From IMG/VR virus record IMGVR_UViG_3300049979_000188: a stretch of 64,000 nucleotides of DNA; one strand, given 5' to 3'. Below are positions 11,708 to 47,564 of the stretch, one piece after another. Made by a program: the position numbers and the translations under genes. The notes beneath the pieces are model-generated. The model worked only from the letters and a program-made list of their open reading frames with translations, did not search any database and had not been told where the DNA came from. Positions within the stretch are counted from its first letter, which is position 1. Every line of letters begins with the position of its first letter. This DNA is from a virus.

Positions 11708-11983
11708 CTACATTTCAATAACTTTACCGGTTTGCTTATCCCGGTAGTAATTCGTGCCATCGAGGGCGTTGTAGCCGAGGTAATCGTAGTTTTGCTTGAT
11801 ACGCACTTCCTCGCGCAAGTCACCAAAGGTGAGCGGGTTGTACTTGGCTTCAAACAGAACAACCCCGGTGATAAAAAAGGGGATAAGCACAATTAACCAC
11901 CAGCTATACTCGTGGGCCAGAAACACGAGGCCGATGAAGCCAACGGGTATAGCCAGCGGGGACCACTTAGCGAGCGTCTTCAT
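11708..11983 (-). CDS. Small membrane protein
   Basis: Two hydrophobic helices at the N-terminus. Confidence 0.75.
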   Translation of the reverse strand: MKTLAKWSPLAIPVGFIGLVFLAHEYSWWLIVLIPFFITGVVLFEAKYNPLTFGDLREEVRIKQNYDYLGYNALDGTNYYRDKQTGKVIEM

Positions 11984-11987
11984 CGGC

Positions 11988-12326
11988 TTAGAGTGTTTTT
12001 ACCCGTACGCTGGCTCCGAGCTGTACTTCCTCAAAACGCGAAGCCGGAATTTGGATGGGGTAGCGGGCAATAAGACTGGCCACCGTGGGCGACACCTTCG
12101 GGTAGGACTTGAGGCTAGTTTGCTTGATGCGCAAGGCATCGCGCTTGGTGCTGATTTCTGCAACCATTACTTTCTCCAAGCGGTCAGGCAAGTGGGTGTA
12201 CATGACTGGGACCAGACTTACCACGGCTCCGGTCTTGGGCTCCTGGCCGTAATAAGGGAGTTCGAATTCGTGGGTCGTAACCTCGGTTACTTCACGGACA
12301 GCTTCTACGTTTACCGTAACTTTCAT
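11988..12326 (-). CDS. Hypothetical protein
   Basis: First gene after the promoter at 12356-12381. Confidence 0.75.
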   Translation of the reverse strand: MKVTVNVEAVREVTEVTTHEFELPYYGQEPKTGAVVSLVPVMYTHLPDRLEKVMVAEISTKRDALRIKQTSLKSYPKVSPTVASLIARYPIQIPASRFEEVQLGASVRVKTL

Positions 12327-19482: not shown

Positions 19483-19692
19483 CTAAGGGGTTAAGTCCGT
19501 GCCGGGTGCACAGGGGGAGGGGGGAGTAGTAAAGCGGTAGCTTCGGCAGAAGCGAAGCACTTCCAGGCATTCCGGGCAAGTGACCTTGGCGCTGGTCAAG
19601 GGCCCCGTCATATCATCGAGGAAGCCGCAGAGCGTGGCCAGGCCGCGGGCTGGGGTAACGATGTGTACTTGGCGAGCGATACGCATATTCAT
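19483..19692 (-). CDS. Small Cys-containing (possible Zn-binding) protein
   Basis: H...LCG...VTCPEC. Confidence 0.6.
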   Translation of the reverse strand: MNMRIARQVHIVTPARGLATLCGFLDDMTGPLTSAKVTCPECLEVLRFCRSYRFTTPPSPCAPGTDLTP

Positions 19693-26006: not shown

Positions 26007-27092
26007 ATGAACCAGTCTCCCCTGCACCAGGTAAAGGCCAGCATTTTTACGCCCAAGGGCGTACTTGCCACCGACAACTTCCCCTACGACGAGGCTACCT
26101 ACGGGGCCGTTGGCACGGACTCGGCCGAGTTGATTCAACTCTTCCACGCCCCGGCCGCTAACCCCATGCGCCAGTACCTGCACGTGGCCGTGCTCGACGG
26201 GGCCACGAAGGAAATACTGTCCGAGATTGGCGAGCTGCCGGCCGTAAAGCGTGACCGTGCCGGTAACATTAAGCCCGGCTACGGGCGTATTTCCCCCCAC
26301 TTGGTGGGCATGACCGATACGCCCGGCTTTAAGCGGAACCTCAGTGCCGAGGTACGCCGTCACACCCGTGACTTGACGGGCAAGGAGCTCAAGTACTTCC
26401 TGCAAGGGGTACTGATTAAGGGTACCTTCGACCGCGACCTTATGCAGCAGGTGATTGTGGACGCTATTCTCTACTATGCCCAGCCCGGCAAGGAAGTACT
26501 GGCCATTGAGGAAGGGGGCAAGCAAATGAGCTACTACCTGGGCATCAAGGCCAATAACATCTACGTGGACTACAAGCGTCACCAGAACGCCTACAAGCGC
26601 GGCAGTGGCAACGTGGTGAGCATCGACGCGCTGGCCGAGCGCGTAGAGGGGGCCACCGACGTGCTCGGTTTTCTGGCCGGGTCGGATTCAGCCGACATGC
26701 TCGACCTGGATGCACAGGTACTACGCCAGGCTATCTTCGGCGTGCTGGCTGATAAGCCCGACAAGCTGCGGCTTTTTGAGCTGCACCTGGAAGGGCTGAG
26801 CCCGGCGCAGATTACCGTGGCCCTGGGCTGGGGTGAGGCGGACGAGAACGGCAAGGTAGACAGCGGCCGCGCCCGCAAGTCGCTGCTGGATACACTCACC
26901 CTGCTTAAAAAGCGTCTACCGGCCCTGGCTGGGCAGCGTCCCCGGGCCAGCGCGCAGTGGGGCGAAGGTAGCGGCGAGAGTCGGGCCACGCGTCACCTGA
27001 GCAGCGCCGACTGCGAGATGGCCGCCCTGGCCCTGGAAGGGCCGGTGAGCTTCCGCGAGCGCAAACGCCTCAAAGTAGGGGCCGCCGTTTAA
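26007..27092 (+). CDS. ECF-like RNA polymerase sigma factor with N-terminal extension
   Basis: Region 2-like DRDLMQQVIV and YYLGIKANNIYVDYKRH; region 4-like LADKPDKLRLFELHLEGLSPAQITVALG...GRARKSLLDTLTLLKKRL. Confidence 0.8.
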   Translation: MNQSPLHQVKASIFTPKGVLATDNFPYDEATYGAVGTDSAELIQLFHAPAANPMRQYLHVAVLDGATKEILSEIGELPAVKRDRAGNIKPGYGRISPHLVGMTDTPGFKRNLSAEVRRHTRDLTGKELKYFLQGVLIKGTFDRDLMQQVIVDAILYYAQPGKEVLAIEEGGKQMSYYLGIKANNIYVDYKRHQNAYKRGSGNVVSIDALAERVEGATDVLGFLAGSDSADMLDLDAQVLRQAIFGVLADKPDKLRLFELHLEGLSPAQITVALGWGEADENGKVDSGRARKSLLDTLTLLKKRLPALAGQRPRASAQWGEGSGESRATRHLSSADCEMAALALEGPVSFRERKRLKVGAAV

Positions 27093-34945: not shown

Positions 34946-35040
34946 CCCAAAAAAGTTTGCCTACTACCGTAACCCTTTCTAAGGGCTCGGCGTAAAAGGA
35001 CCAGTAACGGCAACGGAGCCGCTACTAAAAACCAACCAGT

Positions 35041-35631
35041 ATGAACCACGAAGTAAATGAAGCCGCCAAGCGTATCATCGGCAACGAGGTATTTTTGAAC
35101 CTGACCGGCATGGTCTCGGCCCTGCTCGGGGATGGCCAGGAGCAAATCGACGTCTATGAGTTCGCCAACTACCGCCTGGACCCCGACAAGCTCACGCTGA
35201 GCAAAATGAAGGAACTGCTCGACGAGCAGGCGGAGAGCGGCTACGCCCGGGGCTTCGACTTCAACCCCTGGGTCATGAACCAGGACGAGCTGCGCGCCTG
35301 GGTCGAGGCGGAGGTGGGTGAAGTAGCGCTTGACGAAACCAAGGAGGCCCTGCTGGCAGCGGTAGTGGCCGAAATGGACCAGTTTGGTGATAACTACGAA
35401 AACGAGCTCCAAGGCTGGAAAAACGCCGTGAGTGAGTTGCCCGATGCCGAGGTCTATGAGTGGTGGGCCGTCTCGTCGTTCCTGGCCCGTGAGCTCGAAG
35501 AGGCAGGCGAAGTAGTCGGCGAGGCCTTCGGGGTCTTCCTCTTCGGCCGCCAGGGCACAGGCCAGGCCCTGTACCTGGATTCGACCTTCCAGGAGCTCGG
35601 CAAGGCCCGCGTAGGTGCCCAAAACGCATAA
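35041..35631 (+). CDS. Conserved acidic phage hypothetical protein
   Basis: Own promoter and leader; EVYEWWAVS...FGRQGTGQA motif. Confidence 0.85.
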   Translation: MNHEVNEAAKRIIGNEVFLNLTGMVSALLGDGQEQIDVYEFANYRLDPDKLTLSKMKELLDEQAESGYARGFDFNPWVMNQDELRAWVEAEVGEVALDETKEALLAAVVAEMDQFGDNYENELQGWKNAVSELPDAEVYEWWAVSSFLARELEEAGEVVGEAFGVFLFGRQGTGQALYLDSTFQELGKARVGAQNA

Positions 35632-35655: not shown

Positions 35656-35706
35656 ATGAAGTTCGCCCGAATCCGCGCTACCCGCACTACCAAGATTAAA
35701 CGCTAA
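35656..35706 (+). CDS. 16-aa basic micropeptide MKFARIRATRTTKIKR
   Basis: Hand-translated; pyrimidine-rich leader, followed by a family terminator; paralog at 37850. Confidence 0.65.
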   Translation: MKFARIRATRTTKIKR

Positions 35707-35830
35707 GCATTCCAGACCCTGACTCGTAAAAAAGTCAGGGTTTTTTTTGTGTTTGAACGTAACCTTTTTACGATACCTGCGTAAAAGGACGTGTGCTGCG
35801 CAACGGAGCCCAGCCAGTAACTTACGCGCC

Positions 35831-36307
35831 GTGGATATTTTTCAGACCATTACCCCCGAGCGGGGCATCGTCAACCACACCCGGTTTGGTGGGCAGTTGC
35901 AAGCCTACTGCCAACTCGATAAAATGGTAGAAGTTTTACCTGAGTACGGCTTTATGGACGGGGGCTGCCTTTCCTTGGCCCTGGCCTTACAAGCGCTCAT
36001 CCCCGGGAGCCAGATTTGCTTTGTCTGCACCCTGGCCATGCCGCAGCACGCAGTTTTGCGTTTACCGGCTCCCTTGCATCGGGAGGCCCTTTACCTGGAT
36101 GCTGACGGCCTGGCCAACGGTCCGGAGCTCTGCGAGAAAATGCGCACCGTGGAAAACCTGCGCGGCCGCGTATTCGTGGCCGAGCTCGACTGGCGCGAGG
36201 TTATTCCCAGCGGCATCTGCGACGGGGATAACGCCTCGGTAAAGCTACGGGAGGTGCTGCGCCCGCTGCTTACCCGCAACCCCTGTTCCCCGGCCTGGCT
36301 CGCCTAA
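35831..36307 (+). CDS. Hypothetical cassette protein
   Basis: GTG start 23 nt after the AACGGA loop. Confidence 0.75.
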   Translation: MDIFQTITPERGIVNHTRFGGQLQAYCQLDKMVEVLPEYGFMDGGCLSLALALQALIPGSQICFVCTLAMPQHAVLRLPAPLHREALYLDADGLANGPELCEKMRTVENLRGRVFVAELDWREVIPSGICDGDNASVKLREVLRPLLTRNPCSPAWLA

Positions 36308-36398
36308 TTTTTTTTCGTAAGAACGTAACCTTTTCCCCAAGTCCGGCGTAAAAAGACGCATACCAGGCAACGGAGCCTGATTACTAACTTCACCTAAC

Positions 36399-36797
36399 AT
36401 GGGAACTACCTATCTGAACCAAGTAAAGGGGCTGCGCGCCGGGGCGCTGCTCAGTATTGAGCTTGAAGAGAGTCGCCTGGGTTGCGGACACCTGAGTCTG
36501 TTTGGGCAGCCCTCGCGCCTCATTATTGACTTGCCCACGGGGGAAAAAGGCGTGGTACGCTTTATTAGCACGGGCGGTGATACGGGTGAAGACGGAGAGC
36601 TCGACGTTATCGTGGACGTGGAGCGGCGCTCTTACTTCTACCGTGAGCTTAGCACCGAGGCCCTGGCGGCTTGCGCCGATTACGCTTCGCGGATGGAAGA
36701 CATCTACCACGACGACGAGACCATCCCCGACCAGTACTACCGCCGTGATGCCCTCTTTACCGCCGCTGATAGGTACCCGGTAAAAAAGGCAGAATAA
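36399..36797 (+). CDS. Hypothetical cassette protein
   Basis: Own promoter and AACGGA leader. Confidence 0.85.
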   Translation: MGTTYLNQVKGLRAGALLSIELEESRLGCGHLSLFGQPSRLIIDLPTGEKGVVRFISTGGDTGEDGELDVIVDVERRSYFYRELSTEALAACADYASRMEDIYHDDETIPDQYYRRDALFTAADRYPVKKAE

Positions 36798-36879
36798 GTT
36801 AGTCAAAACGTAACCTTTCCTCCGAGCCCTGCGTAAAAGGACTCAGAAACCAACCCCTCACCCCTTTTTCTTCTTCTCC

Positions 36880-37323
36880 ATGTCTACTGCCGTTTCAACC
36901 CGCACCATCGCTGAACTCAACCTGGGTGACTACCCGCTGAGCCTTTCGCCCGAGCAACTGCTTTTTCTCTTTGGCGAGCAGGTGGCTATCAACGAAACCG
37001 ACCACTTCTGCCGGGTAAGCCCCACCCAGCCCCAGCTGCTGGAAGTATGGGTGAAGACGCGCGGCGATAAGAACTACGAGTTGCTCCCAGCCCACCTACC
37101 CACTGACTGGCTGCCCTTCACGGTAGACGCACGCTACGAAGACAACGACCAGCCCTACACGCAAACGGTACTGGCCACCGACGAGGCCCAGGCCAAGCGC
37201 ATCGTGCAAACGCTGGTCTACTACAGCAACCACGGTTCGGACGCAGACCCGGAGGAATTTTACGAGATGCTCGACGAGGACAGCCTGGAAGTAGCCGCTG
37301 GCTATCACAGCTACACGAACTAA
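36880..37323 (+). CDS. Hypothetical acidic cassette protein
   Basis: Own promoter, AGAAACCAAC leader. Confidence 0.85.
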   Translation: MSTAVSTRTIAELNLGDYPLSLSPEQLLFLFGEQVAINETDHFCRVSPTQPQLLEVWVKTRGDKNYELLPAHLPTDWLPFTVDARYEDNDQPYTQTVLATDEAQAKRIVQTLVYYSNHGSDADPEEFYEMLDEDSLEVAAGYHSYTN

Positions 37324-37420
37324 GTTTTTTTAGTATAAAGCGTAACCTTTCTCCCATCCCTGCGTAAAAGGACATGTACCCGGCAACGGAGCCGGGTACA
37401 CAACCCCCCTTCTCTTCCCA

Positions 37421-37783
37421 ATGGACATTACGGCCACCCCCGCCCTCACCCTGAACGTACCTGAGTTCTTTGCCCGCCTTGATTTTCAAGTGTGGCTCAA
37501 CTCCACCATCAGCTCGCTCAACGGCAGCCAGCGTGCTACCTGGCACAACCTGGGCACGGCCCCGAGCGAGTTCTCGGACACGTTCATCTACTACGAAGCC
37601 TCGGCTACCAAGGGACAGCCCGTAGCCCAGGTAGTAGCTGACATCCTGGCTGGGGAAACCCAGGTGGACGGCTCGGACTTCGATGAGCTCTTTCCCCGTG
37701 AGCTCAAGGTGGAAGTCTACAAGGCCTGCGAGTCGGTTGGCTTTTACGAGGGCATCATCCGCTTCACGAACCTCCCCGAATAA
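37421..37783 (+). CDS. Hypothetical cassette protein
   Basis: Own promoter and AACGGA leader. Confidence 0.85.
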   Translation: MDITATPALTLNVPEFFARLDFQVWLNSTISSLNGSQRATWHNLGTAPSEFSDTFIYYEASATKGQPVAQVVADILAGETQVDGSDFDELFPRELKVEVYKACESVGFYEGIIRFTNLPE

Positions 37784-37849
37784 ATTATTCGGGTAAAGGT
37801 AACCCCAGCTTTTTTTTCTTCGTATACTACCTCACCAACCTTCTTTCAC

Positions 37850-37897
37850 ATGGCTAAGATTAAAGCAACCAAAACCACCAAGACGCGCAAGCGCTAA
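37850..37897 (+). CDS. 15-aa basic micropeptide MAKIKATKTTKTRKR
   Basis: Hand-translated; only ORF between the class-B promoter at 37799 and the terminator at 37910. Confidence 0.7.
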   Translation: MAKIKATKTTKTRKR

Positions 37898-38024
37898 CTG
37901 GCCACCTGAAAAAACCTGACCCTAAAAAAGTCAGGTTTTTTTATTGCTGGGATGTAACCTTTCTCCTGGCCCTGCGTAAAAGGACATATACCAGGCAACG
38001 GAGCCTGGGTTAACCCCTACCACC

Positions 38025-38651
38025 ATGAAACTGACCCCCCACACCGTCCCGAATCTATTGGCCCTGGGTGACGAAACTGCTGCCCTGTACGCGCGCCTGC
38101 GCACAATGGTGGGTGATTTGGCCGCCTTCGGCTTCCCCGACGAAGTAATCATGCCCCTCTACACGGCAGCCGACCAGCTAAAGCACGCCACGGCAAACCT
38201 GGCGAAGAGCGGCAAAAAGCTCGTGGTTATCGAGAAAACCTTCCAGCACCGCCTGCACCTCTCAGCCCCCAATATTAAGCTGCCCACCCACTCGTTTCGT
38301 CTCGACATAGATGGCGAGGTTGAGCTCGAAGATGTACTCGAAGAAAAGGCCCGCGAGGCGTACGTGCGCTTCGATATGGCCGGACGTCGGGTGCGCCTGT
38401 ATCAGCGTCCGGTCACCACTACGGACCCCCAAGCTTGGGAAACTATCGACTACAATTACAACCTGGATACGGATGATTTCAGCGACCAGGACGACGAGCC
38501 CACGCTGATTCCCTTTGACGAGAGCCCCGTGCAAGATGAATGGATTGCCAACATTCGGTCGCAATATGGCGAAGAGATGGGGCCGAAGGAATGCTGGCGC
38601 TTAGCCGCTGACTACTACTACCAACTCAACGGCGTGCTACCAACCGAGTAA
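38025..38651 (+). CDS. Hypothetical cassette protein
   Basis: Own promoter and AACGGA leader. Confidence 0.85.
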   Translation: MKLTPHTVPNLLALGDETAALYARLRTMVGDLAAFGFPDEVIMPLYTAADQLKHATANLAKSGKKLVVIEKTFQHRLHLSAPNIKLPTHSFRLDIDGEVELEDVLEEKAREAYVRFDMAGRRVRLYQRPVTTTDPQAWETIDYNYNLDTDDFSDQDDEPTLIPFDESPVQDEWIANIRSQYGEEMGPKECWRLAADYYYQLNGVLPTE

Positions 38652-38772
38652 GTAAAAACCCTGACCCTAAAAAAGTCAGGGTTTTTTTCTGTGAACCTGT
38701 AACCTTTCCTCAGGGCTCTACGTAAAAGGAGGTGTAAAGCGCAACGGAGCACTTTACTCAAATTCCAACCAG

Positions 38773-46875: not shown

Positions 46876-47163
46876 ATGAACGAGCACGCAACCCCCGACC
46901 TGACTAGTACGCGCATTGGCCAGGAACTACCCCTGCGGCACTTGCAAGGGGACGAGTACACCTACATCCAGAACGAGCAGGAGCTCGCCGCTACCGTAGC
47001 TGACGTGAGCGAAGACGTGCTGGCTAAGCACATCAAGGCCTACGAGAATGATACCATCACTGGGGCAATGGTGAAGGTGGGTGAGGGCTGGTACGACCAA
47101 ATCTGGCTCACCACGGATAGCGCGCCCTATCATTTAGCCTCACTTTATACCCGCGCCCTGTAA
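46876..47163 (+). CDS. Hypothetical cassette protein
   Basis: Own promoter, AGAAACCAC leader. Confidence 0.85.
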   Translation: MNEHATPDLTSTRIGQELPLRHLQGDEYTYIQNEQELAATVADVSEDVLAKHIKAYENDTITGAMVKVGEGWYDQIWLTTDSAPYHLASLYTRAL

Positions 47164-47267
47164 CCCACCCGGTTCTTTTTACGTATACAGACCATAACCA
47201 ACCCGCCCGTGTTTCTTTCGAGAGGCACGGGCCGGCTTGTCAGTACCCACTTCATTTTCTTACTGAC

Positions 47268-47564
47268 ATGACCGACCAACTCCAACTCCTGACCCTTGTA
47301 CCGCGCCAGTTTTACCTGCGCGAAGACACCCGCTACGCCTACGGCAAAGACGGGAGCGACCGCGAGCCCCTCACGCCCCAGCAGGCCCAGGAGCGCGTGC
47401 AAGAGGCCCTGCTGGCCCAGGACGTGAGCCTGCAAGACGTGGCCCCGTTCCTGGGTGCGCTGCTGGTGGGCACGCCCGCCGAGCTCCTGCTGGAAGAGTC
47501 CTACCCCCGCGCCAGCTGCGACTGCTGCAACGACCATGTAAAAGTTTTTTTGGTTGTGGTGTAA
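47268..47564 (+). CDS. Hypothetical protein with C-terminal SCDCC motif
   Basis: Class-B promoter at 47160, long leader with UUCG hairpin. Confidence 0.8.
   Translation: MTDQLQLLTLVPRQFYLREDTRYAYGKDGSDREPLTPQQAQERVQEALLAQDVSLQDVAPFLGALLVGTPAELLLEESYPRASCDCCNDHVKVFLVVV

Follow-up and report, generated by a model that had tools for sequence, protein, structure and literature searches.

The window analysed here, 64,000 nucleotides in length, is part of a 202,851-bp viral contig. From about 27 kb onward it is an array of co-oriented cassettes, each consisting of a promoter, often a leader with an AACGGA hairpin, a small gene and a terminator; promoters of the array have the form GTAACC-N15/17-CGTA(A/T)A. 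Inside this promoter-dense cluster lie two very small genes with strong expression signals. These genes (peptides 1 and 2) and the features that matter for their expression are as follows.

26007 to 27092, + strand: phage sigma-like gene, used as a marker to find relatives
34969 to 34996, + strand: putative ECF-like promoter GTAACC-N16-CGTAAA for the cassette of peptide 1, the nearest one upstream, with no terminator between
35041 to 35631, + strand: 196-aa gene upstream of peptide 1, function unassigned, with a 47%-identical homologue in the related phage L004
35632 to 35655, + strand: initiation region of peptide 1, pyrimidine-rich and G-poor, scored with the start matrix
35656 to 35706, + strand: peptide 1, 16 aa with 7 K/R
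35714 to 35750, + strand: intrinsic terminator of the cassette family with T tail, its stem-loop the same as behind the L004 peptide
37799 to 37826, + strand: putative promoter of peptide 2, GTAACC-N16-CGTATA, with variant spacer and a leader lacking the AACGGA hairpin; that of the second peptide gene in phage L022 (L022b) is comparable
37827 to 37849, + strand: leader and initiation region of peptide 2, G-free, scored with the start matrix
37850 to 37897, + strand: peptide 2, 15 aa with 7 K/R, the only ORF of a predicted transcript of about 110 nt
37907 to 37943, + strand: intrinsic terminator of the cassette family

Both ORFs are present where the initial annotation had placed them, and the motif A(R/K)I(R/K)AT(R/K)TTK is indeed common to them. 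Their differences had been described as R/K swaps; such swaps do occur, but the copies also differ by one I/T change and a two-residue N-terminal insertion. The alignment score of the two peptides was reached by none of 2000 composition-preserving shuffles. Among the 617 small ATG-initiated ORFs of the window, only these two combine more than 40% K+R with at most one G in the 20 nt upstream. As had been noted, each ORF sits just before a family terminator. It comes within 7-9 nt of the stop (35714-35743, 37907-37943), and ordinary cassette genes have terminators of this family too. Peptide 2 has its own predicted promoter, again as annotated; peptide 1 has none and follows the gene at 35041-35631 by 24 nt as a second cistron.

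The starts of 52 cassette genes show no Shine-Dalgarno motif, depletion of G upstream and a preference for A at -12, -13 and -3. Bacteroidota starts display the same pattern, being devoid of SD motifs and favouring A (PMC6847099). Judged from start-site statistics only, the phage host is thus probably a member of that phylum. With a matrix built from the starts of the 52 cassette genes, the peptide 2 start, which has C at -3, falls at the 99.5th percentile among other ATGs and at the 88th among real cassette starts. The start of peptide 1 is weaker (97th and 27th percentile, respectively). A G-poor start of the Bacteroidota type precedes seven of the eight members of the family described below.

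The initial annotation had made its reading depend on conservation in relatives, and six further members were found in four related phages. These phages were reached through the homologue of the gene at 35041-35631 and then with the sigma-like gene as marker. L004 holds the only homologue found of the former, with a 14-aa member (L004:695-739) and the same terminator as that of peptide 1 behind it. Three more phages with the same promoter type harbor the members L019:5053-5094, L022:12029-12073 and 19604-19648 (L022a and L022b), and L025:6407-6451. The eighth member (L224:8457-8504, here L224b) ranks at the top of 308 small ORFs. It lies on a contig of the L025 phage whose DNA was obtained after the family had been defined, which makes this member an out-of-sample one. 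L003 and L023 are identical copies that add no variation, and L021, with just about 1 kb of array visible, is uninformative.

The family therefore comprises eight members of 13-16 aa in five related uncultured large phages, that of the window included, and the sigma-like and flanking proteins of the relatives are only 41-47% identical to those of the window. Two copies are present in three of the five phages; the other two are known only as pieces of 1.6 and 11.6 kb. L022 repeats the layout of the window, with one copy behind a gene and one behind its own promoter, and two of the eight members (peptide 2 and L022b) have such a promoter. All eight stop 3-16 nt before a terminator-type hairpin. 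Upstream neighbours of the peptide genes vary between phages, and a 53%-identical domain is common to the genes that come after the copies in L019 and L025. The gene calls of the six assemblies examined include none of the members.

With leave-one-out scores of 15.5-34, the seven members identified first outrank all other small ORFs of the clade (553 in total), a ranking that is partly circular because these seven were picked by the K/R-plus-leader filter. In unrelated viral loci (7769 small ORFs in 0.97 Mb) the best score was 12.9, below that of the weakest member. In residue order, the L025 member does not resemble the others significantly (shuffle p 0.07-0.24). Within L022 and within L025/L224, the paralogues find their best-scoring partner in each other or have features in common. 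On these sequence comparisons, we regard both ORFs as confirmed paralogues within a family of cationic microproteins, 13-16 aa long, that belongs to this phage clade.

Several other properties of the array deserve mention. The sigma-like gene is the probable reader of the array promoters. The ECF resemblance of its product is weak (Pfam E 0.0026 for one member, SigE region 4 E 0.25), and the protein carries an N-terminal extension of about 100 aa that is absent in most relatives. In L019, L021 and L022 a GTAACC-type promoter of its own precedes the gene, which suggests positive autoregulation. Between positions 27000 and 64000 of the window, homologous cassette genes of L019, L022 and L025 are 31-56% identical and shuffled in order, consistent with exchange of modules through the repeated promoter-terminator units. 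Another GTAACC-N16-CGTATA promoter, of the variant type found at peptide 2, is followed by a GC-rich hairpin (47160-47235) before the ORF at 47268; this element may represent a small RNA or another class of leader. The gene that follows peptide 1 (35747-36307) lacks an ATG at the customary spacing from its hairpin leader. Its likely start is a GTG at about 35832, and the call in the assembly begins later. In L022, a GC hairpin with a U-rich tail (11970-12010) overlaps the stop of a DUF7178 gene right upstream of L022a, where it could attenuate the message of the peptide or lend it stability; a short GC hairpin occupies the equivalent place in L004.

The exchange of R for K had been taken as a sign of selection on the peptide, and the six additional members, together with codon-level signs of protein selection, support this view. 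Five members can be compared in a gap-free register, in which the first, second and third codon positions show identities of 0.60, 0.59 and 0.41. Identical residues are encoded by different codons in 24 of 67 pairs, and 55 of 63 replacements are conservative, the pairs in both counts not being independent. Each of the five K/R swaps between the window copies changes all three bases. The other reading frames contain scattered stops, the leaders are 27-57% identical among members, and RNAalifold found no common RNA structure among them. The three-base swaps, the strongest divergence at third positions and the lack of a shared RNA structure argue for selection acting at the level of the peptide.

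The opposite view, that there is no functional peptide and that the ORFs belong to attenuator leaders or small RNAs or occur by chance beside terminators, can refer to a weak Rfam match to Thr_leader (RF00506) at 37881-37945, with 30.7 bits against a cut-off of 55. Thr and ilv attenuator leaders also contain a short Thr/Ile/Val-rich ORF before a terminator, and the family is rich in these residues. However, the same match is obtained on a sister terminator that has no peptide (38593-38690), so that the terminator accounts for it, and the pairing of coding region with terminator arm is no better than in codon shuffles (seven rows, L224b left out). Moreover, a new promoter lies 49-64 nt past the stop in seven of the eight cases, L022b being the exception, so that the downstream gene is independently supplied. 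Unlike in Thr/ilv leaders, K and R are interchangeable; in addition, no consensus RNA structure was found, and the K/R swaps span three bases. Because there is no antiterminator pairing, because a fresh promoter follows in seven of eight cases and because the Rfam match also falls on a peptide-less terminator, an attenuator is unlikely, and we hold the entire non-peptide view for very improbable. That the peptides are translated and functional is, as far as sequence can tell, highly likely.

A translated peptide might also act without leaving its ribosome, by stalling at its own stop and thereby soaking up ribosomes or release factors, or by guarding the 3' end of its mRNA. All eight members end in two basic residues just before the hairpin, and the ribosome exit tunnel accommodates a peptide of this length as a whole. 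Known termination inhibitors, however, carry Pro-rich motifs, and the family has none. Its length and C-terminal register vary by 1-3 residues, and its stops (five TAA, three TAG) mirror the phage background. Such a nascent-chain device is therefore improbable.

Composition of the family is extreme. The consensus is M-[AS]-[KR]-[IV]-[KR]-[AVI]-T-[KR]-T-[TV]-[KR]-[TVI]-[RK]-[KR], with Ala or Ser after Met in seven of eight members and the first Met as the sole invariant residue. Of 107 residues in total, 48 are K/R (45%; 27 K and 21 R), 46 are T/V/I (43%) and 10 are A; a single one is aromatic, and a large hydrophobic anchor is lacking. No member contains any L, G, P, D or E, which account for 5-10% each in cassette proteins; cassette proteins contain about 10% K+R and about 10% L. 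Every member has 5 to 7 K/R, exchanged for each other at almost every basic column. The basic residues are spaced and not clustered (p 0.003), at the kept positions 3, 5, 8, 11, 13 and 14. GRAVY ranges from -1.4 to +0.2 (seven members), and neither a membrane segment nor a signal peptide was found in the members. A type I toxin or membrane microprotein is not supported, given the lack of a hydrophobic transmembrane segment and of Leu in any member. The idea of a conserved Thr hydroxyl serving as a phosphosite was dropped, as L224b has V/I at the Thr columns. With Val or Ile accepted in place of Thr, what counts seems to be the beta-branch and not the hydroxyl.

So restricted a repertoire (K/R, T/V/I and A, but no L, G, P, D or E) suggests an extended strand of cationic character. 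Its shape is derived from composition, as no member taken by itself shows significant amphipathic periodicity of the strand type (p 0.12-0.70). Inside the infected cell, such a peptide probably has an anionic partner, be it RNA or something else; on composition, RNA, DNA and an acidic protein are indistinguishable as targets.

One specific RNA partner had been proposed by the initial annotation, which saw in the peptides candidates for a lambda N-like factor binding the AACGGA leader hairpin. The peptides are short and basic, and they are encoded in the same regulon as 46 hairpin leaders, the hairpin following 46 of 69 promoters in the window. But the relatives do not bear this out. The hairpin occurs at 2 of 13 promoters in L019 (with altered loops), 1 of 18 in L022 and 0 of 15 in L224, in arrays seen in part; it is thus nearly or wholly absent where the peptide is kept, in two of these phages with two copies. 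The rare hairpins of the relatives (L019:10739-11200, L022:15713-15780, L224:10060-10120) have the loops AACGAC, AACGAT and AACGAA, with a TAACTCC variant in L224. Being so rare and altered there, the hairpin with its invariant AACGGA loop represents an expansion of the lineage of the window and L004. Arginine-rich motifs read bases through Arg specifically. In the family, Arg and Lys swap freely at almost every basic position, and members are often Lys-dominated. The likeness to lambda N, HK022 Nun, HIV Rev and BIV Tat (PMC8633718) is that all are short basic peptides capable of binding RNA; Arg predominates in those motifs, which form part of larger proteins and have a hairpin as their cognate partner, whereas here the candidate hairpin does not co-occur with the peptide. 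The AACGGA-binding factor is hence unsupported, and we consider it very doubtful indeed.

We propose instead the following course of events. The peptides would be expressed from the ECF-type cassette array of large phages in a probable Bacteroidota host. Very probably they would be translated and, as free peptides of the cytoplasm, act in trans; such a product is suggested by the occurrence of own promoters and by neighbours that change from phage to phage. After loss of the first Met, the peptide would lie extended along a phosphate backbone, held by charge rather than by reading of bases. This would agree with the free exchange of K and R, which suggests contacts to phosphates or carboxylates and not a reading of bases by Arg in particular. 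That second copies recur and that starts are good indicates a need for dose and hence an abundant target; two copies and strong starts would supply a stoichiometric amount. The target would be an abundant structured RNA, most likely the host ribosome, on which the peptide might work like a detached extension of a ribosomal protein, shifting translation or RNA stability in favour of the phage. We tentatively favour such a stoichiometric, charge-driven binder of structured RNA, with the ribosome as its most likely target. Of the other two candidates named by the initial annotation, a ribosome modulator and a nucleic-acid mimic target, the former is thus the one we prefer. In our weighing of targets, RNA and the ribosome thus come first, followed by a protein and then by DNA or a general polyanion, both of them unlikely, and the remaining possibilities taken together rank below these.

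A link to the ribosome is hinted at by ribosomal proteins themselves. The N-termini of Bacteroidota uL30 (L226:1492-1671; L227:1483-1662) match the first seven residues of the peptide consensus, and two of four such N-termini score above every one of 1738 control N-termini. When 400 kb of one Bacteroidota genome were scored, uL30 ranked highest among 584 N-termini and a uL29 segment led the 124,036 internal windows, in a post hoc test on a region chosen to hold ribosomal genes and with scores below those of most members. The match may reflect only shared composition. We take it as a modest indication that the peptide could be built like the RNA-binding strands of ribosomal proteins, and do not read it as homology. 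In both the uL30 N-terminal strand and the uL29 segment, K/R are spaced by T/V/I, and a similar comparison can be made with the basic ribosomal mini-proteins bTHX, eL41 and bL38. Unlike these strands, the family is phage-encoded, free-standing and shorter; profile searches of PDB gave no match at E<=10, and no match was found in 401 Bacteroidota genomes by profile and pattern, the profile being weak (members score 15-22 bits) and used without a positive control. There is a precedent for early phage proteins acting on ribosomes in phiKZ014 (PMC10914614). Binding of rRNA by an early abundant phage product may be a principle common to phiKZ014, Churi gp335 (PMC10914614, PMC11849849) and our peptides; the former are full-size proteins of Pseudomonas jumbo phages, while the family has no domain and no known homology to them, and its binding is our proposal.

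The same residues could serve a different purpose, if the peptide docked as a supplementary strand in the acidic groove of some host protein, be it a protease, an enzyme of defence, a subunit of RNA polymerase or a protein of cell division, and so inhibited or redirected it. The strong preference for beta-branched residues without Leu, Gly and Pro, the fixed length and the kept basic spacing (3, 5, 8, 11, 13, 14) would all suit a groove, and the likeness of paralogues within L022 and within L025/L224 is what co-adaptation to a host target would give. Host-takeover clusters are, in addition, rich in small protein inhibitors (PMC6873191). On the other hand, an invariance limited to the first Met and the lack of a large hydrophobic anchor are loose for a specific interface, and we consider a protein target unlikely.

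Finally, the peptide might be a protamine-like binder of DNA or of polyanions in general, which coats, compacts or shields the DNA or mRNA of the phage, or else acts by titrating signals such as polyphosphate or nucleotides. With 5 to 7 K/R in 13-16 aa, their free exchange and a dose need suggested by two copies, this is conceivable, and K/T-rich basic tails are common at the N-termini of phage proteins. Yet residue order is conserved beyond composition in most pairs, more than charge neutralisation needs, and the array looks like an early host-interaction region and not a packaging module. We therefore judge this explanation unlikely as well, and place it after a protein target.

Searches outside the clade were negative. 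The peptide pattern had no match in IMG/VR, and a looser one gave 116, mostly N-termini of longer proteins or ORFs lacking the leader-plus-terminator context. The same context was missing from all pattern matches in species genomes (5) and JGI metagenomes (9), whose number is near chance expectation. The promoter-plus-hairpin motif is absent from IMG/VR and the metagenome set. Neither a close nor a cultured relative was found with the clade markers in IMG/VR and GenBank phages, and literal peptide strings yielded nothing but a surname match in paper texts. In an unrelated IMG/VR phage, a 21-aa ORF that stands alone is rich in Lys and Thr and has a strong Shine-Dalgarno site (L112:3525-3590, minus strand); we regard it as an analogue rather than a demonstrated homologue. 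The family of very small phage peptides is apparently undescribed, published smORF catalogues lying outside the comparison.

The closest organizational parallels are the SPO1 host-takeover module gp37-60 (PMC6873191) and other phage small proteins (PMC11323111), which likewise are encoded by small genes in strongly signalled cassette clusters and whose targets are mostly unassigned. Examples given in the small-protein review (PMC11323111) have 51-79 aa, far more than the 13-16 aa here; our family is duplicated and recurs across phages, and no sequence relation is known.

Taken together, genes of about 14 codons, uncalled in six assemblies, are conserved across phages whose sigma-like and flanking proteins are 41-47% identical, and have been duplicated repeatedly. 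The peptides are cheap to synthesise and the eight natural variants represent a ready mutational scan, so that their target is directly testable. Our boldest suggestion, rather doubtful as it is, is that an unmodified linear phage peptide of 14 residues attaches, free and extended like a strand, to the Bacteroidota ribosome (or another essential RNA), and that translation is re-tuned in this way. If true, the peptides would be among the smallest phage effectors known, and would represent a natural ribosome ligand unlike Pro-rich antimicrobial peptides. Should the target be the ribosome or an essential protein, they would provide a minimal ligand for the SD-independent translation system of Bacteroidota.
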